NCBI RefSeq assembly: GCF_044704955.1
Contig: NC_091993.1
Location: 117,242,001-117,306,000, forward strand
Length of the DNA stretch: 64,000 nucleotides
Reading direction: 5' to 3'
From: Pristiophorus japonicus
Taxonomy: Eukaryota
Part shown: positions 25,082-62,432 of the stretch, piece after piece
Layout of the letters: each line of letters starts with the position of its first letter
Numbering within the stretch: position 1 is the stretch's first letter
Notes under the pieces: generated by a model
The model's input: the letters and a program-made list of their open reading frames with translations, nothing else
What the model was told of the DNA's origin: nothing
Database searches by the model: none
Position numbers and translations under genes: made by a program

Positions 25082-25240
25082 CGTTATCTTTGCAAATTTC
25101 AGGTCAGCACTTGTTGCAAGTCATCCAGCTCTTAGCTCTCACATCGAAATAAATCAATGTAAATGTTGGGAAGTTGTAAATGAGGAAGAAGTTAGCAGGA
25201 AGCAGATGATGAAACCACAAACGCCAGCTGATGAAATCTT
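25082..25240 (-). promoter_or_regulatory. Putative TATA-less haematopoietic-type proximal promoter of gene A
   Basis: Ets/PU.1-like GAGGAA 25182-25187, RUNX AACCACA 25213-25219, E-boxes CAGATG/CAGCTG and GATA TTATCT 25084-25089, all just upstream of the ATG. Motif matches only. Confidence 0.4.
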
Positions 25241-25359
25241 GAAATACTGTCAGTTATATCTAACAAACTAAACTAATCTAATTTTCATCCAAAGGATAGA
25301 AAATTGTGATAACAAGAGAGTGAAAGTGTTAGCAGGAATGGATAATGGCAGTTCAAGGG

Positions 25360-25830
25360 AGATGGCTGGACTGACAAATGAGGAGAGACTGGATCAATTG
25401 GGCCTTTATACATTGGAGTTTAGAAAGATGAGAGGGATCTCATAGAAACCTACAAGATTATGACGGGACGGGACAGGTTAGATGAGGGTAGATTGTTCCC
25501 GATGTTGGGGAAGTCTAGAACCAGGGGACACATTCTTAGGATAAGGGGTAGCCATTTAGACTGAGATGAGTAGAAACTTCTTCACTCAGAGAGTTGTTAA
25601 CCTGTGGAATTCCCTACCGCAGAGAGTTGTTGATGCCAGTTCATTGGATATATTCAAAAGGGAGTTAGATATGGCCCTTACGGCTAAGGGGATCAAGGGG
25701 TATGGAGAGAAAGCAGGAAGGGGGTACTGAGGGAATGATCAGCCATGATCTTATCGAATGGTGGTGCTGGCTCGAATGGCCAAATGGCCTACTCCTGCAC
25801 CTATTTTCTATATTTCTATGTTTCTATGTT
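25360..25830 (+). mobile_element. CR1 3' fragment immediately upstream of the gene A promoter
   Basis: CR1 ORF2 C-terminus and tttctatg tail. Confidence 0.88.
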
Positions 25831-38403: not shown

Positions 38404-38812
38404 GTTCCATCCCATGTAAAAGTGCAACATATTATTAACTTCCAATGCATGAATAGGTCAAGTGGCCGATTTCGTAAAGAATATTGTTCATGTGTTTGTG
38501 ATATTTTCAGGCTTACAAAATTGACACAATAATTGTAACAAAATATGAAACAAGAAGTCAAGTTGTGCAGACAGGAATTGGGCACACAGATATATTATTA
38601 CTAAGATGCAGACAGAGAGACAACAACTTAAAGGATGCAGCCAGAGTTTCGGTTTTGATTTTTCCTCCACTAATTAAATGGTCAAGTTGATTTCATGTCG
38701 AAATCCATTTTATTATTTACAATTGATAAAAATAAATGTGCAAAGCTGGATGAATAATGAATGTTTGATCAGGACACAATATTCCATCAAGGTCGATGTA
38801 ACCAGGGAATCA

Positions 38813-38860
38813 TCACTTTACCACATTGGTCAAGCTGTGACGAACCGATTCATTGAGTAA
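38813..38860 (-). CDS. Probable gene B terminal exon LLNESVRHSLTNVVK*
   Basis: Acceptor ttttctttttcag, phase 0 as required, TGA at 38815-38813, AATAAA ~100 nt downstream (38709-38714). An alternative weaker acceptor exists at ~39350. Confidence 0.55.
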   Translation of the reverse strand, partial: LLNESVRHSLTNVVK

Positions 38861-41800: not shown

Positions 41801-44800
41801 ATTTTCTCGTACACCTTGTGACTGAAATAGTACAAATCACCAGGAGAGCAAAGAGCAGCCAGCGTCCCACATTCCATATAATGTAACTGAGCAAAAGGGA
41901 ACAAATACAAAATCATTCGAAGCAAACGAGTCTGCTTTGTGTTTGAAACATTTATCATCTGTTTACACTGTAATCTTAGTATAGTGCATCAATGTAAAGC
42001 TGCAGAGCCAAGGGACGTTAACTGGGAAAGTAAACTAGTGTTTACGTTATGGAGGAAAGTCAACCTTGTGATCATTAGATAAAGATCAAATGAAGCAAAC
42101 TTCATTAACATGTGCACAATGTATAGCTGCAATGGTAAGCCACAATTTTATAATTGAGGACTTTATAAAAGTGACTGGCCAGCTGAGGGAAGCATCGCTG
42201 CCTGGGGCCATGTAGCAATGGTGAGATATCTCCTCAGGGAGTAAGGATAGTCAGAGTAGCATCACCCTACACTGCTCTTATGCACCTTCTAACAGGCAAT
42301 TGCTGAATAGCTGGAATCAGATATCCTTCCTACCCTCTCAGTTTGGGAACTGTGTCTCACGTCGGGGAACTGAGAAGGGGAAAAAGACAACTTTTTTGTC
42401 AGTACCAGAACAGATAAGGGGCAAGGAAAACTGACATTGCGGTTCTTTGGTAAGTGCAACTCCATGAGATTATGTTAACGGTGAAGTAATCAAGTTGAAT
42501 AATGAAAAAAGCCCCATCTAAGTAGCAGCAAAATGGAAGTGCTTACTTGTTATTCTTATTTTCCAGCAACAAAGACAGCACCTTGGTTAGGAAGCTAACA
42601 CAACATGATGTCAACTCAGTCACCATTCCCATTCTGAGGAGCTACATTCCAAAATAATACATGATTATCAACCCTTATGACAAAACTATTAAAGAATATT
42701 TAATCTCTCACATGGAAGCAATGCTAATCAGAACACCAGCGATGAGAACATTGTACCTTTTCGTCAATTTGGATCCTGAAGAATGGTTTCGATTATCAGT
42801 GGAAATTATATTTGTATTTGTGGAATGTGCAGTTGTTGGTGATACTATTGAAACACCTTCACAAGAATATTCAGGTCCTTTTGAAACAAGGGAACAAAAT
42901 TCAGATTCATCTAATTTTCACTAGTAGTCAACCAAGAGAGCACGATTGTCAAACGGAACCTCAATACTTGGCTGCTAGAAATTAAATTATCCAAATCTAT
43001 GCTGTGTAATTGCCCTTCTCTGGCAGCAAGGAGAGATGTTGCTGTCACCTGACCATGGCCCATATTACTGATAATATACTATTGGGACAGTTAAAGGGCT
43101 CAGGTTGGTGCGATTACAAACCAGGTATCCCCGCGCAAGTGTAAAGGAAAGTTCTAGCCAGAGAGTCGGTCTCTGCCACCACCAGAAAATGTATTCTGTG
43201 GTCCGAGCAAGTGCAATTGTGTCCTGGAAAGTGTCCTCAGTGGAAAAGGAATGTCAGCTGTGCATTGAGTGCAGAGGGAAATATTAGACCAGGAATTACT
43301 GCTGTCAATATTAGTGGACAAGCAGATACATTTCAGATGGCATTTCATTGTCAAAAGATTGTTTCTGTTAAATTAATCAGCAGATGAATGTCACACAAAC
43401 ACATTGAACAGACGCCTGCTAATATTGGCCATGGTCATTTCCTGCCTCTTGGGCTGGGTTTTCTGAGCTTGCGGTAGTAACAGCAAACGACACACACCAT
43501 GCAGGGGATCTCGCATATCAGGGACTGGCTCACAATCACAATAGATCATCGTCCGCCATTTCTGCCACCTCCAGCATGATCCCACCACCAAACGCATCTT
43601 CCCCTCCCCTCCCAACATTCCGAAGCTGGCGCACCCTCCGCGACACCCTTGTCCGCTCCACAAACACCCCCAGCACCCCCTCCCCTTCCCACGACACCTT
43701 CCTGTGCAAGCACAAGAGATGCAACACCTGCCCTTTTACCTCCTCCCTTCCCACTTTCCAAGGCCCAAAATACTCCTTCCAGGTGAATCAGCGGGTTACT
43801 TGTACTTATTTCAATTTAGTATCTTGCATTCGTTGATCACGATGTGGTCTCCGCTACATTGGGGAGACCTAACGCAGATTGGGTGACTGCTTTGCAAAAC
43901 ATCTCCATTCAGTCCGTAAGTGTGACCCTACGCTTCCTGTCGCCTGTCATTTCAACTCTCCGCTCCACTCCACTCCAACTGGGATCTCTCAGTCCTCGGT
44001 CTCCTAGACTGTTCCAATGGAGCTCAACGCAAGCTCGAGGTACAGCTTCTCATCTTTTGTATAGGCACTTTACAGTCATCAGGACTCAACATCAAGTTTA
44101 ATAATTTCAGATCATAATCTCTGACCATATATTTTCCCTTTTTTTAAAAAGCATTCCTTTCTCTCTCCTTCCCATGGCAGCTGGTGATGATTCTGCCATT
44201 CATATCCCATTTAGTTGTTGCTTAACTTGTTCCATTACCATCTCAGTTTTGCCCATCATCCCTTTAGTCTCTTTAATCTCTCCTGCCTTCCACCCTATCA
44301 CAGACCTTCCCTTTTGTTCTTTCCTCCCCTCCCCCTTTCACTGCCACTGCACGTCTTTAAGAATTTGTTACATCTAAAACTTTTCCAGGTCTGATGAAGG
44401 GTCACAGACCCGAAAAGTGAACTCTGTTTCTCTCCACAGATGCTGCTTGACCTACTGAGATTTCCAGTATTTTCTGTTCATATTTCTGGCTCACAAACGG
44501 TTTGGATCGACATTCATTGAAAAATTAATGTTGTTTGTTCAAAGTAACACATACCAATGCCACTGATTTGTGTCACATAACTGCAGTGCTTCCCTGCTCT
44601 GTTGAAGACTGTCACATCGACCGTTTCACTGGATTTCTCTCCCTGATTATTTGAGGCTGTGCAGTAATATTGATGATGTTGCTGTTTGAAGGATTGACAA
44701 TGTAGATCCAGTTTATTGGTGTCGGAGATCTTTGAATCTTTAATCGGGGTCTGTTCATACCATGTGTACTGAATGGGAAGGGATCCCTGGACAGACTCAC

Positions 44801-47800
44801 AGGATACTGACACTGAGCCCCCAAAACATGAGACATTTGGTGGCGATAAATATCTAAGTACAGGAACTGAGACGGATTCTGTGGGAAAGAAACAAACATT
44901 CAGATACTGACTGAACATTTAAAAATCAAACACTCTCCAATTTTCAGCACTTCTGCATCTCAGCCAGGGCCTGCCATGTTGGAATCTCACCAGCACATCT
45001 CCCTCTCCATGTCTCTCCATCCTCCCAGCAGCCTGAACTACCATGTCTGCCATTATATCAGAAGATAGCAGGGCTCCAGATCGGGACAGCAACAATGATA
45101 CCGAGGATGTGTCAATGTGAAAATCAGAGCTAACAATTTCTCTCAGTAGCAGGTAGCCAGCCTCCAATGTTGTTTCATTGTTTGACTCTCGAATGTGAAC
45201 AAGTTGGAGAGAGTCCAAGAAAACTGAAGCAGAATATGAAGGCAAAAATCTGGCAGATATCTGTTACATGTTTTGTGGGTCTAGTTCACTTTTCTACTCA
45301 CACGCACAGATCGATTGAAAAATGAGCAGGAAGTCCTGAACATAGGAAAGGGAATAGGCCATTCAGCCCGTCGAGCCTGTTCTGCCATTCAATTAGATCG
45401 CGGATGATCAATATCTGAAGTACCCACCTTGGTTCCATAACCCTTAATACCCTTGTCTAAATCTGTCAATCTCAGTTTTGACATTTTCAATTGCTCCCCA
45501 GCCTCAACAGCTTTTTGTGGTAGAGACTACCCTTTGTATGAACAAATGTTTCCTGACGTTACCCTCAAGATGCGCTTCAGTTGCCTGGACAGATCCGGAG
45601 GCGCCCTTCAGTGCTCACCAGCCTGGGCCTACAGAATGATGGTGGTTTGCTGCGCTCTGCACAACACTGCGCAGCAGCGAGATTGGAGCTGCAGGAGGAA
45701 CAAGGAGCTGAGCACACGTTGTCTGCGGACCATTCCGGGACAGAGGAGGAAGATAAGAAGTGGAGCAGGAGGAGGAAGAGGAGGAGGAGATTGCGACCCT
45801 AACGCAGCAGCTGTCCCGGCCATCACTCTCTGTTCTTGCTCACTTCTGCAGTGTGAGTCTCCAGGTGAAAACACAACTATCTGTCTAATTGGACCCACTG
45901 AAGTGTGAGTATCTGCGTTGGTGCCTGGTAAGCATGAGTCCTGTGATGGTGCACCCTCAGAAAGAATCACCTCCTCTGAGGATTCGTCGTCTGCGAGGTG
46001 CACTGACTGCTGCTGCACGTGTGAAGGACCTGGCAGGGAGAAAAAATATGAATTAGTACTGGCAAGTTAAGAATGTTGCAACCTATCATTATGAAAATGA
46101 TTATATCTGACTCTGCTGAAACCAGGTCAACATGATTGAGTGTTGCATGACATGTGGGTTCATGATATTTAATTCTGTCACCAGGTAGCTGAGAGGTCCC
46201 CATCTCCAATGGCCAGGGACACCGGGTTGCCACTGATCTTCAGCGCTTCCACCTCTGCATTTGTTAGCTATGAGATCTGTGGAGGACCACCTGTGGTTCT
46301 CTCTCGCTCCCGAGTGTTCTGCACTTTCTTCTCCTGCAACGGGGGAAAGAACAGACCCATGAGTGACTGTAGTGGCATGTGTTCACCCGATGGATGTCGT
46401 GCATATGGTGAGGGTGACTATCAGTGAGAGGCATGAAACTGCATAAGAATCAGGATGGGAGGGAGTGGTGGATGGAGAGATGGGGATGAGAGGAATTGCA
46501 TAGAAAGAGAAGTTTGGGTGTGTATGCAAGGTAAGTGGGTATGAGGAGCGATATGATGCAGTAGATTTGATAAGACAGGGTGAGGGGGTGGTTTATATGT
46601 ACAATGGGTAGTCGGTGAATGAGCAGCTGTACTCACCTTTCCTAACCTGGTTAGGTCATTAAAGAGCTTCTTGGTGTTAGCAGCAGTAGCGTTGTGAAAG
46701 TGGGGCGCAGGCTTTGAGCGTCCTGAGTTTATCTTCTACGATTGCTGTCTATGTTCCCAACCTCCCAACTCCTAGAATTCCATCTTTGGATTGGTTCTTT
46801 AAATACTTGAGTTAAGATTACATCATGCATGTCTGCACCACTCCCACTACCGCACATACGATGCAAAACCCGGGAGTAAATTATTATCGGCCGGCTGTGT
46901 TAAAATGCATTAAAATGCCACAGACAGACGCACTGTCCAGAACCAGGGGACACAGTCTTAAGATAAGGGATAGGCCATTTAGGACTGAGATGAGGAGAAA
47001 CTTCTTCACTCAGAGAGTTGTTAACCTGCGGAACTCCCTACCACAGAGAGTTGTTGATGCCAGTTCATTGGATATATTCAAGAGGGAGTTAGATATGGCC
47101 CTTACAGCTAAAGGGATCAAGGGGTATGGAGAGAAAGCAGGAAAGGGTATTGAGGGAATGATCAGCCATGATCTTATTGAATGGTGGTGCAGGCTCGAAG
47201 GGCTGAATGGCCTACTCCTGCACCTATTTTCTATGTTTCTATGTAATTACTTCTGGGTTTCCCAGGCGATATCGGATCCCCTGCACCGAATACGTCTCGA
47301 AGTTAATATCCAGACCATTGCATCTTATAGTTGATCCATCAGGAGGTTATGCTGGGGAGGAAGATAATGTCTCAACATTTAATAAAGAGGCTTCTTTTAC
47401 CATCAAAACAGTGACCAGCTTTTCAATTTTCTTTTATATTGTTTGTAAAGTTGACCAATTATCTCATTGATGATGTGAGCCATCCATCATATCAGGAAAC
47501 CAGAAAATTAGTTAAGCTCTGTAGATTATAGGTATTTTTTATTAATTTCAAGGAATTTATTCCATTAGTAATGATTTGCTGCTCACTACTTTTGTTATTG
47601 TCTGACTATAAGTTTCATCGTGGGTCCCCTCGACCTGTGCGAGAACACCACCTCAGGTTGTGGCTATAAATAGAGCTTGCCCTGGAACATTGTGGTCGAA
47701 GGTGCAGGTAATGAGGGTATGGGGCCCAGAAGAGTCAAGGGCCCATGGGCAGCACGGGCCAGCCCACACTGTGTGCGCACTAGGTCTGTGCAGCAGAGCA

Positions 47801-48650
47801 GGTCTCCAGTCGTCCTCATTCAACACTTGCCACTTGATAAAGGCCTAGCTCTGGCAAGCCCGTCTGGTGGTTGATGTGCAACGGTCACTACACGTTAAAA
47901 AAATTCACGCACAGACATCTTCCACCCCCTCAATTGGAGTTCAGGACTGGAACATTGGGTCTTTCATTGAATCATCTGTGATGATGATTAGTTTCAGTCT
48001 GAAGGCAAACCTCTGACAGTGGGACATTTAATACAGCTCAGAGACAGGGACATGTGGTGTGCCTCCAGGTGATGTCTGGCACAACACTCTGTAGTTAAAG
48101 GAATTGTTGGTCCCATAATAATTGAAATTCCTGGTCGGGAAGTTGGGCAGGCCACGGATTGGGAGTGTGCACCGTGAGTCGGATTTCCCCACCTCTGCCC
48201 ACTACCTGTGAGACTCTGCACTGCTGCGGAGCCTCGGGATATCGGAGCTCTCATGTTTCCTCCCAGATACAACATTGATCAGACAGTTCAGTAGAGAGTA
48301 ATAAAGCAAATCGCTGAGAAATGTACCGTGAGATATTTGTAGCTCCATATTGAAATGTGTATCGAAGCTGCCTGATTCTGTAATACCACAACTGTACCAT
48401 CCTGCATCTGCTGAGCGAAGGTCCTTCATCGTAACAACAAATATTCCTGCTATCTGGTTATTTGTGATTGACACTCTTCCTCCCCATCCATGTTTCTCAT
48501 TTGTTGTTACTACAACTGAGCATTGGTGAGTCCAGCCCTGACACCAATATTTCACATGTGACCGGTACCTTTGGTCATAGTGACATTCTATGGTGATCGC
48601 TCTTCCCACAATTCCTCTTAGTCGTTTATTTGCCCACAATGCACCTGAAA
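38813..48650 (-). CDS. Gene B: activating-type paralog (V-C2-stalk-TM(Arg)-short tail). Exons 48650-48327, 44878-44555, 42877-42757, 41886-41796, probable last exon 38860-38813; leader exon not found
   Basis: All identified exons are open, with GT-AG sites and consistent phases. It would be 314 aa with an A-type leader. It may be a 5'-truncated pseudogene. Confidence 0.72.
39403..40265 (-). mobile_element. CR1 3' fragment
   Basis: LYRALVRPHLEFCVQF...TRGHNLKI. Confidence 0.85.
40335..41079. mobile_element. MITE of the same family as 4371-5114, opposite orientation
   Basis: Perfect TIR TGGCCCTGAAATTCCG; internal similarity to 4371-5114. Confidence 0.78.
41796..41886 (-). CDS. Gene B transmembrane exon SYIIWNVGRWLLFALLVICTISVTRCTRKSK with intramembrane Arg
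   Basis: Strong acceptor ttgttcccttttgctcag, donor AAG|GTAGGG; the phase-2 start matches the stalk; Arg codon at 41862-41864. Confidence 0.85.
42757..42877 (-). CDS. Gene B stalk exon GPEYSCEGVSIVSPTTAHSTNTNIISTDNRNHSSGSKLTK
   Basis: Paralog of 14750-14855 with an in-frame 15-nt insertion; acceptor aag, donor AG|GTACAA. Confidence 0.82.
43541..44485 (+). mobile_element. Penelope-like element fragment (GIY-YIG endonuclease and 3' end)
   Basis: CKHKRCNTC..FTC...NLVSCI..C.L.YIGET.RRL....H...PVACHFN pattern with stops; a reverse fragment lies at ~57830-58230. Confidence 0.8.
44555..44878 (-). CDS. Gene B C2-domain exon
   Basis: 9 aa differences from gene A exon 3; acceptor tttcccacag, donor G|GTATGT. 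Confidence 0.9.
45555..46920 (+). mobile_element. Harbinger remnants in gene B intron (paralog of 20530-21700)
   Basis: Same transposase C-terminal fragment; the middle portion differs from A. Confidence 0.7.
47613..47987. mobile_element. Gene B-specific ~370-bp retroposon-like insertion
   Basis: Absent at A ~22390; flanked by a duplicated t(a/t)agtttca; family not identified with certainty. Confidence 0.55.
48327..48650 (-). CDS. Gene B V-domain exon (CD300/pIgR-type)
   Basis: IECHY..KYWCQGWTHQC..GRVSIT..DAGWYSCG; same splice positions as gene A. Confidence 0.92.
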
Positions 48651-48905
48651 CTGAGGAGACAATATTTCAGAAATTGAACAGGAAATAACTGCTTAATACA
48701 AAGAGATACATTTTAATAAGAGGAATCTCTCCACTACATCTATTGATACAGGTGAATTCCTTCTAGTTTGTGATGAAAGAAAACATTAATATATTGCCTG
48801 ACCATACCTTCAGGATCTGCCAAAGCGCTTCACAGCCAATGATTTACTTTTGAAGCACAGTCACTGTTGTTATTGAGCCAGCTGTGGCTCAGTGTTAGCA
48901 TTCTC

Positions 48906-50336
48906 TAGGTGGGAGGGGGTAGGAGTGAGCAGGTGCTGCTGATTACTGCAGGATTTGGTGTGAGTTTGTAAAACGTTGGTGGTGTTTTTGTTTCAAATTT
49001 TAGGGCCTGTTTGTCCCATATACAGCAGCCAGATGGCTGCTTAGAGGCCTGGAATGCTGGCCCCTCTGAAGACAATGTTCCCAGGATGAATTTAATCAGG
49101 GAAGAAAATGTTTTGGGAAGTGAGAATAAAAGGCCCAAATATTTGGGCCACGAGCTCAGGCGGTTTGGAAAACGTGGCATCACTTCAGGGTCTGCAGCTG
49201 CTTGTGTGGCTGTCCGGGTGTGCTTCCCCACGAGTGTGAGCACCTGCTCCTTCATGTCAGTGATGTCATTGATGACTGGTGGCCCCCCACCTATTCACCT
49301 CTGCATGGACCTCATCATTGATAGCTTCTTCTGTAAAAGGTAACAGGACGACATGGCATGAGATCACTGCGTGATATCATTGCTAGATACTGCCACAGAG
49401 ACTGATACAACACATAACCGACAGAAGTAATCATCATTATTATGAAAATTATCCTTCTTTACCTAAAGATGTACACCATGAATGCAGGCATTGAGTACAA
49501 CATTCCCAGTAAAAGTGGAAGACCTCACATCTGATTATAGTCATTCATGACTCTTACAAATCAAATTATATAAATATATAAATACAGGTAAATAAATTTA
49601 ATACTCTTGCAGATCCAACAAGGTTGTTCCATCGCTTGCGGCATTGGTTGCCCTCACGCACCTCGTTGGTCACCGACGAGACCACCTCTGCTATCTCGGC
49701 CCATATCTTCTGGTAGGCCTTTGGATTGGGCTTCCCATACCCTCCCTGGGTCAAATCACCCCAGCGTAACTCAACCTTCTGCAAGAGGGAGGCATTTGCC
49801 TCATCCGAGAACCTCCTCTCTTGTGCCCTCCAATGTGCTCCTCTCCCAGCTCATCAGCGTCAGTCTCCACAGCGTGCTGTCTCGCCTCCTCCTCTCCCTT
49901 CATTATCGGCACCAAATTGGGGCAAATATCTGGCTGGTAACAGCTAATTTTTTTTTTCCCAATTTGCTATAAAGCTCTAAACTCTCCCTCCTTCCTCCCA
50001 AAGCAGCCACATCACACCCACACACGCCTTCACTCACTCTCAGCTCCCTCTCTCTCTGTCTCCTCTTATGCGCATGTCATGATGACCTCCTGAATCACGG
50101 GAATCGAGCGTTGCTATGCCGTTGCTAAGGACGGCGACATTTTACGGCAGAAGGTCAAAGAGATTTAATGTTACCGCCTATTTCATATCGCTCGCAGTAA
50201 CGCCCAATTTGAAAAATGGAGACTAGAGGCTTTGAGAATGAGCGACAAGCCGACGATCTGAAAACGCATTTTTACAGCCCAGGCCGGAATAACGCCCTTT
50301 TTTGGGCAATCTGCTCAAAAGTGTAAAATCTAGCGC
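48906..50336 (-). mobile_element. Truncated inverted Harbinger-type copy related to 50600-56251
   Basis: ORF 49566..49784 IWAEIAEVVSSVTNEVREGNQCRKRWNNL (Myb/SANT); TIR-like end at 50336; the other end is abruptly truncated. Confidence 0.75.
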
Positions 50337-52319
50337 TATAACTTTCAAATAAATGGATAAAATGGATAAATAGCTGTTGTGGGAGTTTGGAAGGATTTAC
50401 ATGGTGCATTAAAATGGTGCATTTCATCTGTAAGAAAACACTTTCTGAGAGCCCAGCAGGTAGAGAGAGACTTATTATGTGCCTTGGGGGAGAAGGACTA
50501 ACCTATATGAGTGACATGGGAAACAGTGGAAAATATTGAGAATGAAAATCAAAAAGTGTCAGTCAGTGCTCAGTGGAGAGCACTCACCTCTGAGTCAGAG
50601 GGCTGGACTTTCCATTATTGTGCAGATCGCCCAAAATTGGGCGTTATTTCCAGCGTTGGTGTTTATTATGGATTTTGAGATCGTTGGATTATCACCTATT
50701 TTCAAACCCCCTCATTTCCACTTTATAAAATGGCCGTGAACGGTATTTATTTTTGTTCTGTTGCAAAATGTTGGCGTCCATAGCAATGCATAGCAATGGT
50801 CTTTTCCCGCGCTTTAGGTGGTCAGGGATCATCAATACATGTGCAGAAGAGGAAAGAGGAAGAGAAAGCTTGTGTGGGTTTGTTGTGTAGGTGTTTGTGA
50901 TTTGTTTGGCTGTTGTGGGAGTTTGGAAGGATTTCTATGAGGGGTACTCATTAAAAATAGCACCATTTAGTTCTGTGAGACAGAAATTTCTGTCACAAAA
51001 ACATTAAAAAAATGGAAGGCATGGAGGAGGCGAGAGATCACGATGTGGAGGTGGAAGAGGCTGGTGAGGGCAGTGAGGTTGGAGAAGAAGTGGAGATGTG
51101 AGGCCGAAAAAGAGTGAGGAGATTCTCGGACGAGGCAAGTGCTGCCCTCCTGCTGGAGATGGAGTCACGTTGGGGTCAATAGACCCGGGGCGGGCGTGGG
51201 GAGCCTACCCCGAAGGTTTATCAGCAGATTTGGGCTGAAATCACTGAGGTGGTCTCGTCGGTGAAGCACAAGGTGCGTGAGGGCAACCAGTGCTGCATGC
51301 GCTGGAATGACCTTGTCGGCTCTGGCAGAGTAAGTATTACATTTATTTACATTTACTTATATATTTATATAATTGGAATTGTAAGTGTAATGAGGAAATA
51401 AATTCAGATCAGATATATTGCAGTTAGACCGGTAACATTTTACTGCAATTCCCCGTTTACAGTGTACGTGTTTAGGTTAATAATGATAATAATAATAAAA
51501 ATTATAACATCTGTCAGTTATGTGTTGTACCAGTATCTGTGACAGTATCTAGCAATGATCTTATGCAATGATTTTATGCCATGTCGTGCTGTTGTTACCT
51601 TTTGCAGAAGAAGCTTTCGAAGAATAGGGCTGAGCAGCGACGCACAGGTGGCGGCCCACCAGTGATCACTGAGCTGACCGACATTGGGGAGCAGGCGTGG
51701 CACTAGTGGGGATCCATACCCGGTCAGCCACCCATGCAGCAGCAGAACCGGATGTTATGCCACGTGAGTAAAGTATACACCATTGCGTGATGTAAAGTCA
51801 ATAGATGCCACACCCACTCATAGCCGCACAATTTATGATAGATGATTGATGAAAGTGTTATATAATTAATTATGGGCTCACGAAAATCATTGTAGTGCAG
51901 AATTTGTTTATGTTCATTAAATGTGATGTCTGTGATTATTTTGATAGCAGTAGTGCTGTTCTCGTGCATATGCTATGTGCAGCGTTTGAATCACCCTGTG
52001 ACCCTAGCATTCCCTTCTCCTCTAACTCCCTCATTTATGTTTTGTAGCTCTGCCAAGAGCGCAGTCACTGCCAACACCACCGAGGCGGTGTCGGCAGTGG
52101 ATCGTGCTTCTGGTGGTGAGGAGCCCCGAATATCGCCCGTTGAGCTGCATGTTGTCCTCCCCACTGAGGACAGTGAGGAGTTGGAGGAGCCTGCAGCAAC
52201 AAGCTCCATATCAAGCACACCTATTACATTTAATGTTCCTGCGGCCATGTTCTCCTCCACTGTGGAGGTAGCGGGCCCAAGCACTTTGCTGCAGGGCACT
52301 CCAAGTGTCTCCATTCCTT

Positions 52320-52943
52320 CATAGCGAGGGAATTTGAGTACAGGGGCAGGGAGGTGTTACTACAGTTGTACAGGGCCTTGGTGAGGCCACACCTGGAGTA
52401 TTGTGTACAGTTTTGGTCTCCTAACTTGAGGAAGGACATTCTTGCTATTGAGGGAGTGCAGCGAAGGTTCACCAAACTGATTCCCGGGATGGCGGGACTG
52501 ACATATCAAGAAAGACTGGATCAACTGGACTTGTATTCACTGGAGTTCAGAAGAATGAGAGGGGATCTCATGGAAACGTTTAAAATTCTGACGGGTTCAG
52601 ACAGGTTAGATGCAGGAAGAATGTTCCCAATGTTGGGGAAGTCCAGAACCAGGGGTCACAGTCTAAGGATAAGGGGTAAGCCATTTAGGACCGAGATGAG
52701 GAGAAACTTCTTCACCCAGAGAGTGGTGAACCTGTGGAATTCTCTACCACCAAAAGTTGTTGAGGCCAATTCACTAAATATATTCAAAAAGGAGTTAGAT
52801 GTAGTTCTTACTACTAGGGAGATCAAGGGGTATGGCGAGAAAGCAGGAATGGGTTACTGAAGTTACATGTTCAGCTATGAACTCATTGAATGGCGGTGCA
52901 GGCTCGAAGGGCCAAATGGCCTACTCTTGCACCTATTTTCTAT
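52320..52943 (+). mobile_element. CR1 3' fragment nested in the Harbinger element
   Basis: ORF 52354..52860; the tail continues at 54498-54517 after the nested MITE. Confidence 0.9.
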
Positions 52944-54497
52944 GGCCCCAAGTTTCGACATGATTTGCTCCTGATTTTTAGGAGCAACTGGTGTAGAACG
53001 GAGTATCTTAGAAATCGGAATTCTCGCCATTTAGTTTGCTCCAGTTCTAGTCAATTAGAACAGTTTCACTTTGGAACAGAATTTTTTTTCAAAAGGGGGC
53101 GTGTCCGGCCACTTACGCCTGTTTTCAAAGTTTCGGCAGTGAAAACTTACTCCAAACTAACTTAGAATGGAGTAAGTGAAGATTTTTGTACGCTCGAAAA
53201 AACCTTGTCTACACTTTAGAAAATCAGGCGTAGGTTACAAATCAGGCGTAGGGAATGGGGGGGGTTGGAGGGGGGGTTTAAAGGGAAGTTTACAAACATT
53301 AAACACTTCAGTTTTACAAATAAAGAGCCATCATCAATAATAAATGATAAATACATCAATAAATCAACCAATAAATCAATCAAAAAAAATTAATTGGAAA
53401 TAATTTTTTTTTTTAAATCAATAAATAAAACATTTTCTACTTACCGACTGCAGCACCGGGAGCCCTCCAACAGCGTGCTGGGATGCCCCACCCCCAGTGT
53501 GTCTCTGTCAGTGTCTCTATCTCTCTGTCTGTGCGTGTCTCTCATTCTCTGTCTGTCAGTGTCTGTGTTTCTGACAGCGAGGGGAGGGGGAGGAGGGGGG
53601 TTAGAGGGAGAGAGGGGGGAGCAGAGGGGGGAGCAGAGGGAGAGCAGAGGGAGGGAAGGGGGAGAGGGGGAGAAGGGGGAGGGGGGGAGAAGGGGGGGAA
53701 GGGGGAGGGGGGGGAAGGGGGGAAGGAGATGGGAGAAGGAGATGGGGGGGAAGGAGATTGGGGGGCGGAAGGAGATTGGGGCGGGGGGGAAGGAGAAGGG
53801 GGAGGGAGGCTGAACGGGCCAGGCCCGGCCGGGCCCGAGACTTCGGGGCAGGGCCCGTCCCCAGCACCAGATTTCCAGGTAGGTGGCGTTGGGTCAGGTC
53901 GGGGGGAGCGTGGGTCGGGGGGGTGGTGGGAGGGAGGTCGGTTCGGTTCGGGTCGGGGGGAGGGAGAGGGAGGTCAGGTCGGGTCCAGTCGGGGGGGGTG
54001 GGGGGAGCGGGAGTCGGGTCGGTGTCGGGTCAGGTCCGGTGTGGGGGCGGGGATGGGGGCGGGGGGGTGGTAAGCGGGAGTCGGGTCGGTCTCGGGGTCG
54101 GTGTCGGGTCGGGTCCGGAAGCGGGTGTCGAGTCGGGTCGGGAGGAAGCAGGAGCTGGCCGTAGGAGGAGCCTTATGCACGCAGCCCCAGTGAGGCCATT
54201 GGGCCAGGGCTAGGGCTAGGGGCTGCATGCTTCGGCCCCTCCCACACAGTTTTGGGCGCCTGGAGCTACTGCACATGCGCGCCCACTGTAGCGCGCATGT
54301 GCAGAGGTCCCGGCACTGTTTTCAGCGCAGGGACCTGGCTCCGCCCCATACAGCTCCTGCTGCGCTGCGCCGAGGGCCAGAGGACCTGCAGGGAGGTGGA
54401 GAATCTGGAAGTATTTTTTCGGCGCACTTTGTGGCGCGAAAAATAGGCGTCCAGGTTGGGACTGCGCCGTTCTATGCGCGGCTCGAAACTTGGGCCC
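52944..54497. mobile_element. Non-autonomous Harbinger-like element nested in a CR1 3' tail
   Basis: 15-bp TIR GG(C/G)CCCAAGTTTCGA, 3-bp TSD TAT; internal G-rich low-complexity tract ~53580-54150. Confidence 0.82.
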
Positions 54498-56724
54498 TAT
54501 GTTTCTCTGTTTCTATGCCGCTGTCGAGCCCACAGAGCAGGACTGCTCCCCGATCGGTAGATCTCAGTGGTTACATGATACATTTGTCCAGGAGGAGTGT
54601 TGACATAGGTCAGCAGATCCTCCAGACAATGGGGGGCATATCCCAACAGATGGACACCATATCCGCAAACATGACCGAGTACATGCCTCGGATGGCAGTG
54701 GCCCTGGAGGTGATAGTCAGGAACACAGGTGCCAGAGGACTACCAGTGTTCCCGGAATGCGGCACTGAACCCCAAGGTGCCACACCCCCATTGCCAATGA
54801 CATGAGAGCCAGGAGGAAGCTTTTGCTTCTGGCTCGGAGGACATTACCCCCTCGGGAACATCCTCTCCAGCTTCCGGCCAACCAACGGATCTGCCATCAT
54901 CACCCCCAATGAAGCAGTGCCTGAGGCAAGGCATCTTGGAGTCAGTTGAGGAAGTGGTAGAGGTGGGGAGAAGATGCGGGGAGGAAAAGGAAAATGAGGT
55001 GCATGGCCGTAGGAGTTGGAGTTCTAACAGTATTGTTCTTGTTTTTGTTGCTAGTTAATGAATGTTGGGAGGTTTGGGGGAAGGGGGGAGGCGGGGTACT
55101 TTGTTGTATTTGCACTTGCGTTATTAGTGTTATTGGAAATGTTAAAATTGTTATAAATTTGTTCTGGAGCGGGGTGGGGGTGGGGTGGGGTGTTTTTTAC
55201 AGTTAGAATTATGAATTAATACAAATGTTATCATTAAACTTATTTTATTTAACATAACATTGTTGCGCATTTTCTCAGATCGCTGTAACATTAAACACTG
55301 GTGATTCCTTAACATGAAAGGAGATAATTAAACGTAACTTGAATTAACTGTCACCAAAGTAATGCACATCATTCATGTATGAGCTGCAGACACAGCAGTC
55401 TTGCAGCTTTGTAAATACCACCAACGTTATTTCAAGCAAAGAGCTCATTTATGGTCTGCTGATATAAGAGTCTTGCAGCTATGTAGCAACCACGGGCCGT
55501 TTCCAGCGGTCTACAGAGAGGCGGGGGCATGGTTTCATCTTCAGCCTGATTGTCCACCTCCTCGTCTTCCTCTTCCTCAGTCTGCCACCTCTTTGATTGG
55601 GCACATAATGCTCTTCAATATACCTTCTGCCATCTCTGGTCTACAGCATGTGCATAGGCATCGAGACAGGCTGAGAAATTACAGGCCCCATTACAATAAC
55701 AATCAGTATTATACCTCTTGCTCACAAACAAATTTACCTACTAAAACAAATAAAATAAATTCAATTCATCCACAGTATGATAAGATGTTTGTTCAGATTT
55801 TCAAATCACCTTAAAATAATTCCACATTACATCAAAACTCCCCAGAAGTTGAAGCAGCCTTTTATATGAAAAGTCCTCCGATTTACAAAATGGCGTCCAT
55901 ACCGCTGGGTAAAGGTCAGGTGAGTGCAGCTTTTTCTCAGCGTTTGTTTCGGTGAGCAATATTTTCAGCGATTATGTGGGCGAGATGCCGAAAGTAACGC
56001 TCGGCGATATTATGGGCGTCAATTTCCATTTTTCTGAAGTTTAGGGCAAAAGAAAATGGGCGGGCGGGATTAATAATTCTCGGCGTTAACTAAATGCCAA
56101 AAGCAACGCTGGGAGATAAGTGAGCGATAAATGGGCGTAAGTTTCCATTTTTCTGCTAAATGGGTGATATCTGGGTGTTATACCTCATCTCAGCGTTAAA
56201 ATGGACGTTAAGTGGGCAGTAGCGATGCAAAACTTATGGAAAGTCTAGCCCAGAAGATTGTGGGTTCAAGCCCCATTCCAGAGACTTGAGCATATAATCC
56301 AGGCTGGCAGTTCAGTGCAGTACTGAGGGGGTGCTGCACTGTCAATGGGTGCTATACTTCAGTTGAGATGTTAACCCTGCCTGCCCTCTCAGGTGGACAT
56401 AAAAGATCCCATAGTTTGAAGAAGAGCCATGGTTTCTTCCATTGATCTGGCCAACATTTATCGCAATTGTAAAATGTTTGCTCCTGTTCTTCTGGCTGAT
56501 TTTATACTGAAGGAGTAAATGGATAAATTGCAATGTATGTTTAGTTTGGACAAAAGCAAAATACTGCGGATGCTGGAATTCTGAAATAAAAACAGAAAAT
56601 GGTGGAAATATGCAGCAGATCAGGCAGCATCCGTGGAGAGAGAAACAGAGTTAACGGCGGCGATTTTGCCACCCATGGTGGGTCCGGAGTGGCTGGCATC
56701 GGTGGCAATTGAAGCAATCTTCCA

Positions 56725-56866
56725 GGGAGAGAGAGGGAGCATGTGAGAGGGAGAGAGAGCGAGTGAGAGGGGGAGAGAGTGTGTGAGAGTGAGAGAGTGT
56801 GTGACAGAGGGAGAGAGTGTGTGTGAGAGAGAGAGAGAGAGTGTGTGACAGAGGGAGAGAGTGTGT
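56725..56866. repeat. Compound (GA)/(GT) microsatellite
   Basis: Directly visible. Confidence 0.9.
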
Positions 56867-58805
56867 TAAGCCCGCCCTGCGAGGTTCCCGGCCAATTAAC
56901 AGGAAGCGGGTTTAATTAACGGGACCATGCCCACATTGATTTTGACAGTACTTCTGTCAGTGTTCTACACTCCCCACAATGGTGATGAGTGTGAAAGGAA
57001 TGGCTTGGCCATCGCAAAACACTTGATGGAGCTGGTGTGGATGGTGTCAACCTGGTGCATCATGTGGCAACCAGGGTGTACAAGGTCAAGTGAAGTAAAT
57101 GTGGCCATAGTGAGGCCATCCCTGCCCTCCCAGGCAGCAATATGGTTGGGTGCTGATGCCCTGTGTCCATGCAGCATCAAGAGTTTGCGGAGAAGGTTGG
57201 TGTTGTTGATGATGTTGGTGTTGGGGCTGATCGTGTTGGGATTCTGAGGACCAAGGTGAGAATTTTTCAAGGGCAACAATACTGCTGGAATAGATGGCAG
57301 ATGAGGTTGAGATGACAGAAGTGATCTGTCAATTGTGAGAGAGGTTGCTCCAATTAGGTGACAGTGAATAGAGAGTTCACTGTAAATACTTCCAAACTGC
57401 ATACAGCTCAAAAGTTTCTTTCAAATCCTGAAGGCTTCAGATTCTGATATTGGAAAGTGAACAGCTGTGAAATGGTAGCTTTTATATCACTTTTGCAAAT
57501 ATCAACTAGCCAAAGTAATGGAGAGTCATGGAGAACCCGACTCCACTTACCTGGTGTGTTCCGAGGGACGGCAAAGTCATCAAAAGTTTGGTAAAATTGT
57601 AAGTGCCTGCTTAATTAGCATTCAACCACCGGTTAACTACCTTAATTAACTAGCCCGTGGCTTGGTGACGGGTCTGCGATCCGCAGGCACACCAGACAGT
57701 TGGGAAACTGGCACAGAGGCGGGCTCAGAGAGGGATCCTGTCCCACTATCAATCAGGGCCATTTTGACAGCAGGCCCGCCTCCAAACCCGCACTCGAGGG
57801 CTGGGAATATTCCGGTCAATGTTTCAGGTCGATGACCTTTCGTCAGACTGGAAAAGGTTAGCGATGTAACAGGTTTTAAATAAGTACAGAGGCAGGGAAA
57901 TGGGGGAGGGGAGGAAAGAACAAAAGGGGAATGTCCGTGATGGGGTGGAAGGCAGGAGTGATTACATGACAAAAAGGGATAATGGTGCAAGACAAAAGTA
58001 GATGGTAATGGGACCAGTAAAGAAACAAAAGATGGGTCGAGAGGAGGTGTAAATGGGAAAAGCAGAATCACCAGCATCAGCTGCCATCCGAAAAAATGGT
58101 GGCAAAGACAATGATGTGAAATGATTGAACTCAATGTTGAGTCCGGAAGGTTATAAAATGCCTCATAGAAAGTTGAAGAGCTGTTTCTTGAGCTTATGTT
58201 GAGCGTCATTGGAACAGTGTAGGAGGCTGAGGAAAGAGAAAGAAAGAAAGACAGACTTCGATTTATGACTTTTATGATCACCAGACAGCGCTTTACAGCT
58301 AATGGAGTACTTTTGGAGTGTAGTCACTGTTGTATTGCAGGAAACGCGGCTGCCAACTTGCGCACAAGCAAGCTCCCACAAACAGCAATGTGATAATGAC
58401 AAGATAATCTGTTTGTTTTTGTTATGGTGATTAAGGGATAAATATTGCTCTTCTTTGCAATAGTGCCATGGGATCTTTTACGTCCACCTGAGAAATAGGA
58501 CGGGGCCTCGGTTCAACGTCTAATCCGAAAGGCGGCACCTCCGCCAGTGCAGCATTCCCTCAGTACAGCACTGGAGTGTCAGTCTAGATTTTTTGTGCTC
58601 AAGCCCCTGGAGTCTCAGAAACACAAACTTGCTGATGATGCTAAATTGGGAGGAGCAATAGTGTTGGAGGGAACAGCTCAGACGTTAGAGAATGAGTGGG
58701 ACAAAATAGGTATGCAGACAGCTCATGGCAGCTGAAATTCAATGCAACTGAAATGCAAAGTAAGATGCAACAATAAGCAAGGCATGTACCACATGAACGG
58801 TTTGC

Positions 58806-61036
58806 CTAACATCTAGCGTTAGCATAAATTGCCATTTCAGAGTCCTGTGGAGTATCAGGTGATGGAGGGTCTCTGTTGTTCGTTGGGGGATAGGTTTGAA
58901 CCTTGATAGCACTGTAGGTGACACTGTCCTTGTTGTTAACTGAGTGCCTGGCCACCTCACCGCTCCGTGCTGTTGATTGCTTTTGAAACTCCACTCTTGC
59001 ATACGTGATTCCATTTTCATCGTTACTCAATTGGGCAGTTCCCTCGTTGGGCATTTCTGCTGAGCTATGTCGAAGGGGCTTTAGACTTGCATATACAGTG
59101 CTCCCTTCCGCTGCTGAAAATTGCTAAAATAAAAAAAAATACAAGATCCAATTTATCTCTGATTAACTTGAATGGTGGTTTGTGCTGTTATGAGGTAAAA
59201 TGTATTTCTAGATTATTACAAATCAGTTTACAAAGTATTACAAAGTACGACAAATTATTTACAGCACAGAAACAGGCCATTCGGCCCAATGGGTCCATGT
59301 CGGTGTTTATGCTCCACACGAGCCTCCTTCCACCCCTCTTCATCTAACCCCATCAACATACCCTCTATTCCTTTCTCCCCATGTGCTTATTTAGCTTCCT
59401 CTTGAATGCATTTATGCTATTTGCCTCAACTACTCCCTGTGGTAGCGAGTTCCACATTCTGACCACTCTCTGGGTCAAGAAGTTCCTCCTGAATTCCCGA
59501 TTGGATTTATTACTGTCTTATATGTATGACCCCTAGTTCTGGTCTCGCTCGCAAGTGGAAACATCTTCTCTATGTCTACCCTATCCAACCCTTCTATAAT
59601 CTTGAAGACCTCTGTCAGGTCACCCCTCAGTTTTATCTTTTCAGAAAAGAACCCCAGCCTGTTCAATCTTTCCATAAATGTTTAATTTTCCAAGAGAGTA
59701 TAATAACACATTACATATCATAGAAACATAGAAACATAGAAAATAGGTGCAGGAGTTGGCCATTCGGACCTTCGAGCCTGCACCACCATTCAATATGATT
59801 ATGGCTGATCATGCAACTTCAGTACCCCATTCCTGCTTTCTCTCCATACCCCTTGATCCCTTTGGCCGGAAAGGGCCACATCTAACTCCCTTTTGAATAT
59901 ATCTAATGAACTGGCCTCAACAACTTTTTGTAGTAGAGAATTCCACAGGTTCACAATTCTCTGAGTGAAGACGTTTCTCCTCATCTCAGTCCTAAATGGC
60001 TTATCCCTTATCCTTAGACTGTGACCCCGGTTCTGGACTTCCCCAACATCGGGAACATTCTTCCTGCATCTAACCTGTTGAATCCCGTCAGAATTTTATA
60101 TGTTTCTATGAGATCCCCTCTCATGCTTCTAAATTCCAGTGAATATAAGCCTAGTCGATCCAATCTTTCATATATCAGTCCTGCCATCCTGGGAATCTGT
60201 CTGGTGAACCTTCGCTGCACTCCCTCAAAAGCAAGAATGTCCTTCCTCAGATTAGGAGACCAAAACTATACACAATATTCAAGGTGTGGCCTCACCAAGG
60301 CCCTGTACAACTGCAGTAAGACCTCCTTGCTCCTATTCTCAAATCCTCTTGCTATGAAGGCCTTTTGCCTTCTTCACCGCCTGCTGTACGTGCATGCCAA
60401 CTTTCAATGACTGATATACCATGACACCCAGGTCTCGTTGCACCTCCCCTTTTCCTAATCTGTCACCATTCAGATAATATTCATCATCTCATGGGTCAAG
60501 TAGCAGTGATCCTAAATAAATATTAACTACATCTATATTTACAACAACAACAACTTGCTTTCATAGAGTGCCTTCAATGTAGTAAAATGTCCCATGGAGC
60601 GTTACAGGAGCATAATCAGTTAAAAATTGAAACCGAGCCAAATAAGGAGACATCAGGGCAGTTGGCCAAAAACTTCTAAGGTTTTAAGGCAAAATATTTT
60701 AAGGAGCGTCGTAAAGAAGGAGATAGCAGCGGAGAGGTTTAAGAACGAAAATTCCAGAGCTTAGGGCCTAGATGTCTGAAGTCAAGTCCGCCAATGGTGG
60801 TGTTAAGGAAGTGGAGGATGCATAAGGCCGGAGTGGGAGGAACGCAGAGTTCTTGGAAAGTTGTCGGGCTGGAGGAGGTTAAAAGGTTAAAATAATGCAT
60901 GTGCACATCCTGGCCCAAAATCCTAATTTTCAGTTTCATAATTTCCAAACATTATTCAGAGGATTCATACTTAATACCCTTACCTGATTATCATGAAGAG
61001 TTTTGTCTCCTCTATTACATATTATGCAGTTTGTAT
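58806..61036 (-). CDS. Gene C (partial): inhibitory paralog of gene A. Exons 61036-60984 (DTNCIICNRGDKTLHDNQ) and 59123-58806 (tail with TVYASL, ITYARV, VTYSAI, AIYANA); upstream exons lie beyond the window
   Basis: Same exon lengths (53 and 318 nt), splice sites and flanking intron repeats as gene A exons 6-7; both exons are open. Confidence 0.85.
59718..60482 (-). mobile_element. CR1 3' fragment specific to gene C intron
   Basis: CR1 motifs; absent at the paralogous site in A (~3135). Confidence 0.88.
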
Positions 61037-62266
61037 CTGAAAAATGAGAATGCTGCTGTTGAAAGAGCTATAACAGGAACAATTAATATGTTTAAAACTG
61101 AGTTTTAAAAATGTACAAACTGAGCAGGTGTTTCAGAGTGCATGACCATACATTGATCTACATTTATGTGAACCTCATCTGCATTGCACACATGATTCCC
61201 TACATAGAGCGAAAAACTGCTCTGGTTATTCTGCACAATATTCAGAAAGCACGGAGGTAACTTTCACCTTCACTGACTGACGCAGCAGATCATCTGCCTG
61301 TTGCGGAACTCGCCCGATTATCACCCATTGATTTCTACAAGGCACTCTGCCAGATTATCGCCCAGACGTGAAGGTGAAAATTAGCTCCCCGTGTGTTCAG
61401 GGTTTTACGAGACAAAGAGATGTTGAATCAGTTTGGGTGGTGATGAGGAATAATAAAGGGGAAAAAGTCGCTGATGGGTGTAGTCTATATGCCCCCTAAC
61501 AGTAGCTACATTGTTGTTGGAGTATAAATCAAGAAATAATGGAGACTTGTAACAAAAGGAACATCAATAATCATGGGCGATTTTAACCTTCATATTGATT
61601 GGACAAAGCAAATTGGACAGGGTAGCCTTGAGGAAGTGTTCATGGAGTGTATCCGGGATAGTTTCCTTAAACAGTTTCAGAACCAAGCAGGAAGCAGGCT
61701 ATCTTAGGTCTGGTACTGTGTAATGAAATAGGATTAATAAACGATCACCTGATAAAAGATTTTCGAGGAATGAGTGACCATAGCATGGTTGAATTTCAAA
61801 ATCAGTTGGAGTGTCGGAAGTGCCGTCTTTCGGATGGGACGTTAATCCAAGGCTCCGTCTGCCCTCTCAGGTGGATATAAAAGATCCTATTGCACTATTT
61901 CAAAGAAGAGCAGGGGAGTTAGCCCTAGTTTCCTGGCCAATATTTTTCCCTCAACCAACATAACTAAAACAGATTTTCTGATGATTATCATATTGCTGTT
62001 TGTGGGACCTTGCTGTGTGCAAATTGTCTGCCGCGTTTCCTACATTATAACAGTGACTAAACTTCAAGAAGTACTTCTTTGGTTAAAAAGTGCTTTGGGA
62101 TGTCTGATGTTTATGAAAGGCACTCGATAATTCTTTCTTTTTTCTACTGACACCACAATGTCAGCCGATGAGTTGGGGGTGGGGAAGGACTAGTTTATTT
62201 TGCAGCAAACAAAATTTATTTATTAAGAAAACAGTAATGCAAACAAAGTCTATTTACTCAGCAGAG

Positions 62267-62432
62267 CCTATTTAAACAGTGCATTACAGCAAACAGTCTA
62301 CAGGGTCTATTTAAACAGTGCATTACAGCAAACAGTCTACAGAGTCTAGTTAAACAGTACATTACAGCAAACAGTCTACAGAGTCTATTTAAACAGTGCA
62401 TTACAGAAAACAGTCTACAGAGTCTATTTAAA
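62267..62432. repeat. Paralogous 39-bp minisatellite, 4 full units plus a partial unit
   Basis: Units start at 62267, 62306, 62345, 62384. Confidence 0.95.

Follow-up and report, generated by a model that had tools for sequence, protein, structure and literature searches.

Gene B and its receptor family

The window, by which we mean the whole 64,000-nt stretch of Pristiophorus japonicus DNA that was analysed, carries genes A and B on its minus strand together with the last two exons of gene C. Gene B encodes a V domain, a C2-like domain, a stalk, an arginine-bearing transmembrane (TM) segment and a short tail. Its V-set Ig exon (48327–48650, phase 1-1) has tandem acceptors, both intact, and is followed by an open C2-like Ig exon (44555–44878, phase 1-1), a stalk exon (42757–42877, phase 1-2), a TM exon (41796–41886) in which the arginine lies in NVGRWLLF, and a last exon (38709–38860) that specifies a 15-codon tail with its stop at 38815–38813. 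The acceptor of the stalk exon ends in AAAAG, as compared to AATAG in gene A. Joined at AG/GT sites, the five exons yield a single open frame of 302 codons, as expected from the initial sequence-only reading, in which all exons of B were open. All donors are intact, as is the poly(A) signal, an AATAAA near 38714, downstream of the frame. Judged from its charge, the TM segment is predicted to be of the activating type. With no leader, the first methionine of the frame is codon 75, within the V domain.

Genes A, B and C appear to belong with the CD300/pIgR-like (MDIR-type) paired receptors of cartilaginous fish. The V-set domain (PF07686) was detected in both B (E 6.3e-12) and A (E 9.9e-12), and each has an extra cysteine pair after YWC (KYWCQGWTHQC and KYWCDGTTISC, respectively), which is a feature of CD300 and pIgR. 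Four Tyr motifs mark both A and C as putative inhibitory members, the TM segment of A being neutral; B, the putative activating member, has an Arg in its TM segment and a short tail. Related proteins bear database names such as 'polymeric immunoglobulin receptor-like' and 'CMRF35-like', and the name MDIR was absent among the 25 homologs returned. According to the accessible text on the MDIRs of clearnose skate (PMC3031540), these likewise comprise V-set and C2-like Ig modules, with Tyr-motif inhibitory and charged-TM activating members in tandem; this likeness is one of domain organization. Compared to the cartilaginous-fish CD300/pIgR-like receptors, B has a single module and lacks a leader.

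The nearest named protein is a P. japonicus model, P0001 (leader, 100%; C2, 97%; V, 91%). At least three Ig domains occur in 20 of the 25 homologs, which were returned by a search restricted to longer proteins and biased toward such forms. Multi-module L-(V-C2)n receptors are, by these predicted proteins, common in sharks and rays, so that forms with three or four Ig domains are not unusual; we rejected the suggestion that isoforms of this size would be a novelty. Splicing of a C2 exon to a V exon is usual for the family, and at least two V domains stand behind one leader in nine of ten homolog models with the TM type of B. The activating gene in P0001 has three modules. The V domain of B is identical at 95 of 104 positions to that of the final one, versus 85–86 of 104 for modules 1 and 2, and it is also identical at 95 of 104 positions to a leader-adjacent V in P0001. 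Gene B looks like the last module and tail of a multi-module activating gene. Models P0001, P0002 and P0005 each show an activating gene with the leader of a second gene directly behind it, matching the order of B then A. Another named model from the sawshark, P0025, likewise consists of a V-C2 fragment with no leader and begins in Harbinger-like sequence.

The interval between genes B and C

To search for the missing 5′ end of B, we scanned the window with a profile of 16 distinct homolog leaders. The profile scored 49.8 at the leader of gene A (25045–25081, minus strand, phase-1 donor), the only leader in the window, and 22.8 at the next best minus-strand site. No leader-like exon was found in 48650–58810, where the maximum was 16.1, and candidates in this interval with a Met start and a phase-1 GT scored at best 2.0. 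Similarly, the leader and promoter region of A (24900–25360) had no other match in the window better than E 0.6. The earlier statement that no leader exon lies between the V exon of B and gene C is therefore upheld. Two hydrophobic Met-start ORFs, at 55315–55234 and 58077, were rejected as replacement leaders: they lie within transposons, have weak donors and are unlike the family leader. Over 48651–58805, gene B has neither the promoter nor the leader expected of a standalone type I membrane receptor.

Immediately above the V exon, an intron remnant (48651–48905, minus strand) is 89% like intron 1 of A. As previously described, the match stops at 48905, ∼30 nt inside a SINE head. It does not stop at a truncated Harbinger copy, as had also been proposed: the match to that copy begins at 49172, after a 266-nt stretch (48906–49171) that is matched nowhere else in the window. 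A second version of this stretch, with one extra T at 48984, is present in a DNA run and represents a paralog or an allele. The truncated Harbinger-like element (49172–50343, minus strand) contains a Myb/SANT ORF (49850–49569; PF13873, E 1.7e-6) and is 69% identical to, and inverted relative to, the copy at 50600 (50593–51765). Recombination between SINEs at 48905 was considered and rejected, as the SINE head near 48875 is distinct from the one at 50559 and lies 1.65 kb away from it.

Consistent with its description as almost entirely transposons, ∼9.2 of the 10.2 kb between B and C (91%, as the sum of element coordinates) is transposon-derived, with the elements nested. A plus-strand SINE is split into a head (50559–50599) and a body (56252–56455) by a large insertion, and the two halves rejoin colinearly with an intact SINE near 15130. 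The insertion is a 5652-nt Harbinger-like DNA transposon (50600–56251) that has 14-nt terminal inverted repeats (TIRs) with one mismatch and an AGA target duplication on both sides. Short TIRs and a 3-bp target duplication are characteristic of PIF/Harbinger elements, as is the Myb/SANT domain of the related copy. Nested within this element are a CR1-like fragment (52316–52943) and a second TIR element (52944–54497), and it contains a short acidic C-terminal remnant near 55680–55434 that we take to be transposase-like (DDE). The labels Harbinger, CR1 and SINE are likewise presumptive and independent of any repeat library. Closer to C, a retrotransposon-tail repeat (56550–58239) is interrupted, its parts at 56550–56657 and 57819–58239 being separated by a 1.16-kb insert (56658–57818).

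Gene C is represented by a cytoplasmic exon (60984–61036, phase 1-0) and by its last exon with the remaining 3′ UTR (58613–59123, of which 59123–58806 is coding). The leader, V and C2 exons of C lie beyond the window, and the phases of their donors are predicted from A. The last exon encodes four Tyr motifs (ITIM/ITSM type), has its stop at 58808–58806 and retains 193 nt of 3′ UTR. This UTR can be matched to A as far as 58613 (position 2032 in A), 290 nt before the AATAAA of A at 1742, where it is joined to a minus-strand, 5′-truncated SINE (58245–58612); TCCAG at the join is common to the UTR of A and the SINE. The reported loss of UTR homology near 58612 is thus correct, but homology to the A reference region (412–2032) resumes in an island at 56455–56549. 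This island matches 412–506 of A, which lies 1.2 kb past the AATAAA of A, over 95 nt in the same orientation (78% identity, 96 columns, E 1.1e-15). It scored 83, compared to a maximum of 34 across 30 shuffles, and no third copy was found in the window. Canonical minus-strand AATAAA hexamers occur between C and B at 55249, 51347, 50751 and 50667. The hexamer at 55244–55249, within the Harbinger-like element, is 185 nt after the stop of the transposase-like remnant (55434) and is AT-rich downstream; it could terminate C transcripts and is a candidate substitute poly(A) signal. A homolog search using the last exon of C yielded one passing model among 39 candidates (P0001), with neither gene C itself nor a C-B fusion represented.

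Origin and coding potential of gene B

Overall, these data suggest that gene B is probably a young, 5′-truncated gene remnant that is non-functional. A deletion or ectopic recombination would have removed its promoter, its leader and probably upstream modules. The break, placed between 48905 and 50559 and predicted to fall in 49172–50559 rather than at 48905 itself, would have joined the downstream flank of C to the intron above the V exon of B. Separately, the 3′ UTR of C would have been cut short at the SINE join, with C transcripts now presumably ending at a transposon signal such as that at 55249. The retained island indicates that the UTR loss in C was local and that the 5′ loss in B was a separate event, making at least two lesions. 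One continuous deletion between 58612 and 48905, earlier proposed to have taken both the terminator of C and the promoter and leader of B, is contradicted by the island, still present at 56455–56549, and by the coherent nested transposons at 50559–58612. Repeat-mediated deletions are known in paired-receptor clusters, according to the accessible text of PMC2816608. Some observations weigh against the remnant interpretation. The V domain matches the leader-adjacent V of P0001 equally well, which leaves the loss of upstream modules unproven. Moreover, the loss of the poly(A) region of C directly upstream of B would be a coincidence, and would favour read-through.

On this reading, the exons of B would still be open owing to the recency of the lesion. 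In a neutral simulation (4000 runs, indel/substitution ratio 0.083, exons and nine splice sites scored), B remained intact in 56%, 32% and 10% of runs at 0.5%, 1% and 2% divergence, respectively. As 10–56% of copies stay open over this range, the openness of the exons says little in favour of function. Intactness fell to 3% at 3% divergence and 0.4% at 5%, which counts against a remnant if the lesion is old. DNA-run contigs that differ from B by 0.8–4.4% cover its exons and introns, indicating that close relatives exist and that B can be young.

Contigs of sequencing runs were compared with 38500–53300 only, in four of 14 listed runs (X1, X5, X12 and X14), with none recorded as RNA, and the comparison was swamped by repeats. 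No B exon-exon joint was present among the 15 joints listed (455 more), in which every side was at most 30 letters, and no loose end at the V acceptor of B among the 24 listed (2305 more). In X5, a run of unrecorded kind, one contig (48327–48606; eight differences in 280) stops at the V exon boundary and another begins at the C2 acceptor (five differences in 243). These resemble cDNA from a paralog or a different allele and are not assignable to B. Runs X5, X12 and X14 gave little or no cover of the stalk and last-exon bins, which carries no evidential weight in a repeat-dominated comparison.

Of the two fates originally proposed for B, young pseudogene or read-through, the former is the best fit and the latter is possible in principle only. 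In the latter, B would serve as a functional alternative 3′ end of C, with transcripts from the C promoter joining a phase-1 donor, be it that of the leader, V or C2 exon, to the V exon of B; an activating receptor would then be made under the promoter of an inhibitory gene. The genes share a strand, B is fully open with intact phase-1 acceptors, C lacks the segment carrying the AATAAA of A, and the leader, V and C2 donors of A are all phase 1, in a family in which C2-to-V splicing is normal. We nevertheless consider this unlikely: such a transcript would skip at least four C exons (stalk, TM, cytoplasmic and an intact terminal exon) over >15 kb and pass all four intervening AATAAA hexamers. 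Moreover, the nearest C donor, at 60984, is phase 0 and would lead to a stop after 8–10 codons in the V exon of B, and the TM donor of C (phase 1 in A) would yield a product with two TM segments. A C-B chimeric transcript was not encountered. It is similarly doubtful that the two independent lesions created one unit, in which a single promoter would give either an ITIM receptor or, when the whole C tail is skipped, an activating receptor lengthened by additional V-C2 modules, perhaps as a segregating haplotype variant.

Alternatively, the leader and upstream modules of B may lie beyond 64000, with C a duplicate inside a long intron of an activating gene: internal modules normally have leaderless V exons, and the second version of the sequence past 48905 may mean that this segment is ordinary inter-module intron. 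This is improbable, as a gene that is nested on the same strand and has its own terminal exon would disturb splicing, the fused annotation models show tandem rather than nested genes, and the interval has no post-C2 intron homology beyond dispersed repeats. An assembly misjoin or collapse between 48905 and 50559 is conceivable in a cluster of 90–99% identical modules, given that near-identical paralogs exist and that none of the eight DNA-run pieces listed (182,267 more) bridges 48905. It is quite improbable, however: the window contains no N, zero-difference DNA contigs lie on either side (47432–47767, depth 8.95; 50305–50552, depth 8.2), and 50559–58612 is coherent, with matching TIRs, a target duplication and rejoining SINE halves. 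Finally, the truncated Harbinger-like element (49172–50343) might provide a promoter for a leaderless or non-coding RNA from B. The element is oriented toward B and places a minus-strand Myb ORF immediately upstream of the V exon; the paralog model P0025 begins in Harbinger-like sequence; and depth reached 238.5 at 48984 in one run of unrecorded kind. This is very improbable, since there is no signal-peptide-like exon and few strong donors in 48700–50600, and the first exon of P0025 corresponds to another copy, in antisense. Were B transcribed in this way, it would still be a non-functional receptor.

Relationship to other paired-receptor clusters

Read-through (conjoined) genes are typically adjacent and on the same strand, with a weakened upstream poly(A) region and compatible splice phase. 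The B-C pair resembles them in adjacency and strand and may do so in the other two traits: C lacks the A-type AATAAA segment but is followed by other minus-strand hexamers, and the phase-1 acceptor of B would suit the phase-1 donors predicted for C outside the window, the in-window donor being phase 0. A point of difference is that no promoter belonging to B lies within the window. Our literature search, in which few subscription papers were covered, returned nothing on this shark locus or on paired-receptor read-through. Hybrid genes formed by unequal crossover have been described, in the text accessible, for KIR2DL1/2DS1 and KIR2DL3/2DP1 (PMC2816608) and for SIGLEC14/5 (PMC4042635). As far as those sources go, these hybrids resemble B-C in involving a paired activating/inhibitory cluster, partial gene deletion, repeats at the breaks and the placement of one gene's exons downstream of another's promoter. 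By contrast, their crossovers, at homologous positions, gave one complete gene, which is not seen in B-C: the inhibitory tail of C is retained in full, together with a 3′-flank island, upstream of B. With the B exons behind that tail, a joint product could arise only by read-through combined with the skipping of several exons.

Among partial pseudogenes, KIR3DP1 is, as B would be, a gene fragment retained in a tandem array by birth-and-death turnover. KIR3DP1 lacks its 3′ end, whereas B lacks its 5′ end and, unlike such partial pseudogenes, has so far no frame-breaking change. The accessible part of PMC5290243 names KIR3DP1 as a pseudogene.

Gene models in this region are unreliable, as public ones fuse neighbours or begin in transposons. 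If read-through did occur, it would be a one-promoter route to paired activating and inhibitory receptors, unlike the homologous-crossover hybrids of KIR and SIGLEC. On the best reading, gene B is a snapshot of birth-and-death turnover, ordinary for such clusters, in a little-studied paired-receptor cluster of a shark.

Exon structure and missing leader of gene B

The window contains three related Ig receptor genes, all on the minus strand; in the direction of transcription C comes first, followed by B and then A. Gene A is complete, with a leader (25081-25045), V, C2, stalk, neutral TM and cytoplasmic exons and a last exon bearing four Tyr motifs; only two exons of gene C, 61036-60984 and 59123-58806, lie inside the window. 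In gene B, we identified a V exon (48650-48327), a C2 exon (44878-44555), a stalk exon (42877-42757), a TM exon encoding an Arg (41886-41796) and a last exon of 15 codons from 38860, with an AATAAA near 38714. As the sequence-only reading had stated, these exons are all open; they form a single frame when spliced. Two 470-nt direct copies, 88% identical, lie immediately downstream of B's 3' end (37223-38371). An LTR retrotransposon-like element (26764-31475) with interrupted ORFs and 94% identical terminal repeats (26764-27010 and 31230-31475) occurs upstream of A, 1.7 kb from its start codon. A C intron carries 4.4 copies of a 39-nt tandem repeat unit (62262-62432), versus a shorter duplication in A near 6975-7180.

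A leader profile built from 16 distinct homolog leaders scored A's leader at 49.8. By contrast, the best site in 48650-58810 scored 16.1, and the best site combining a Met start with a phase-1 GT scored 2.0. The A leader and promoter region matched nothing else in the window. A leader for B is absent inside the window, in agreement with the earlier claim that none lies between B's V exon and C's last exon, and the first Met in B's frame falls at codon 75.

Two probable lesions between C and B

Approximately 91% of the interval (48651-58805) is transposon sequence, much as had been described; the family names used here (Harbinger-like, CR1-like, SINE) are presumptive. The segment 48651-48905 matches A intron 1 at 89% and ends ~30 nt into a SINE head, as reported, but the Harbinger-like copy previously placed at this junction begins 266 nt further on, after sequence with no other match in the window. 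This truncated, Myb-bearing copy (49172-50343) is followed by a ~215-nt spacer and a split SINE (head 50559-50599, body 56252-56455). An element of 5652 nt, which has 14-nt TIRs and is flanked by an AGA target duplication, interrupts the SINE and itself harbours a further TIR element as well as a CR1-like fragment. Next comes a 95-nt non-repeat island (56455-56549) and, toward C, a retrotransposon tail split by a 1.16-kb insert and a 5'-truncated SINE (58245-58612) that joins C's UTR at a common TCCAG.

Aligned in the same orientation, the island and A 412-506 match at 78% (E 1.1e-15; score 83 versus at most 34 in 30 shuffles), and the window contains no third copy. The counterpart of the island sits 1.2 kb past A's AATAAA. 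Because the island matches A's far 3' flank, C's downstream flank would extend at least to 56455 and, via the split SINE, to 50559. Thus, C's homology to A, thought to stop at ~58612, appears to resume at the island, although the AATAAA segment is indeed lost. The piece missing from C would be local, spanning no more than A 2032-507 and taking in the AATAAA at 1742. The loss of B's 5' end would then be a separate lesion, located between 48905 and 50559, and the retained island argues against the single deletion proposed to have removed C's terminator together with B's promoter and leader. Alternatively, a low-copy repeat might account for the island.

The intron above B's V exon is 11% diverged from A, and at 48984 one contig of a DNA run (depth 16.2 of 24.8) carries a second version of the sequence. 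A paralog may therefore share the DNA past 48905, and the true break of B may lie elsewhere. In run X12, of unrecorded kind, depth at 48984, within the 266-nt segment that has no other match in the window, was 238.5, possibly a short repeat match; X5 and X14 had none.

Age of gene B and rival explanations

Contigs from the DNA run that cover B depart from it at 4/501, 5/335, 12/501 and 30/675 letters, indicating that close relatives exist. In neutral simulations (4000 runs each; indel/substitution ratio of 0.083 from A-B and A-C introns), all exons and nine splice dinucleotides survived in 56, 32, 10, 3 and 0.4% of runs at 0.5, 1, 2, 3 and 5% divergence, respectively. At 1%, survival was 43% with an indel ratio of 0.04 and 20% with 0.15. 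Under this model, B's open exons would not strongly imply function. The stalk acceptor of B (42878-42882) is AAAAG versus AATAG in A, a weaker -3 base that possibly reflects early decay. With its leader missing and its open exons a weak sign of function, B is most likely a young, 5'-truncated remnant of an activating gene, a reading that we favour with some confidence and that corresponds to the 'young pseudogene' branch of the original proposal.

Functional C-to-B read-through splicing is unlikely. In its favour, B has intact phase-1 acceptors, the leader, V and C2 donors of A are phase 1, and the A-type poly(A) region is gone from C. However, splicing to a useful product would have to bypass the terminal exon of C along with its stalk, TM and cytoplasmic exons. 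From the nearest C donor, which is phase 0, a stop follows within 8-10 codons, and a join from the TM donor would yield two membrane spans. Moreover, four minus-strand AATAAA motifs lie between C and B. The first below C, at 55249, has an AT-rich downstream tract and is 185 nt past a transposase-like stop. A phase-1 donor-like GCG/GTGAGG occurs at 58960 within C's last exon, and the motif is also present in A's last exon. That C is nested inside a long intron of B's activating gene is more doubtful still.

An assembly misjoin at B's 5' side is improbable, and the nested elements of the interval are coherent. The window contains 0 N letters, and DNA-run contigs match it with zero differences at 41091-41444, 42276-42522, 47432-47767 and 50305-50552. 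Support for the assembly at the B-C interval is nevertheless partial, since this run may be the assembly's own source and, in a contig comparison over 38500-53300, none of the pieces listed bridges 48905. Over 41091-50552 in run X1, depth was 8-11 in zero-difference contigs versus 14-17 in divergent ones; this hints weakly that only one haplotype carries B, contig depth not being copy number. Transposon-driven RNA from B is very unlikely, the least probable of these accounts. In KIR hybrids and SIGLEC14/5, a deletion joining homologous positions leaves one complete gene, with repeats at the KIR breakpoints (PMC2816608, PMC4042635, PMC5290243); the C-B locus is not such a hybrid, since C keeps its tail. 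Our literature search found no paper on this Pristiophorus japonicus locus.

Gene B among elasmobranch homologs

A search with B's V domain gave 25 homologs, every one from a shark, skate or ray and most of them carrying the names pIgR-like, FcRL5 or CMRF35-like; P. japonicus models come nearest, none identical to any window gene. These names are to be taken loosely, as PMC4016189 reports sharks to be without pIgR or FcRL homologs. Skate MDIRs are described as comprising activating and inhibitory families related to CD300/pIgR (PMC3031540), and the window genes are likened to them by that description.

Divergence between A and B (14400-23315 versus 42382-48905) forms a mosaic. It stands at 11% above V and 14% in V, drops to 2-7% over the stretch running from the post-V intron to C2, and is 13-17% at the stalk. 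This pattern suggests gene conversion or recombination across the V-C2 intron and C2. Public models P0001, P0002, P0003, P0005, P0006 and P0007 merge neighbouring cluster genes in several species, with internal leaders, and a Rhinoraja model joins a TM exon to a V exon; such fusions are either annotation artefacts or traces of read-through among these receptors.

At least three Ig domains occur in 20 of the 25 homologs, a single leader commonly serving several V-C2 modules, and at least two V domains in 9/10 models with B's TM type, in a search of proteins of at least 183 aa that favours multi-domain matches. Extra Ig domains in a C-B fusion product would be nothing new. In the P. japonicus model P0001, a three-module activating gene is joined by annotation to the following inhibitory gene, the B-then-A order; P0002 and P0005 likewise show an activating TM and then a leader. 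B's V shares 95/104 positions with the last activating module of P0001 and 85-86/104 with the first two, but it equally shares 95/104 with the V that follows the second leader. P0025, a sawshark V-C2 model, is also leaderless. Its start is Harbinger-like, with a 65% aa match to 52260-52192, and its end is intron sequence, indicating that leaderless fragments of B's kind recur. Together, the multi-module homologs and the likeness of B's V to the last P0001 module are consistent with B representing the 3' end of an activating gene with several modules.
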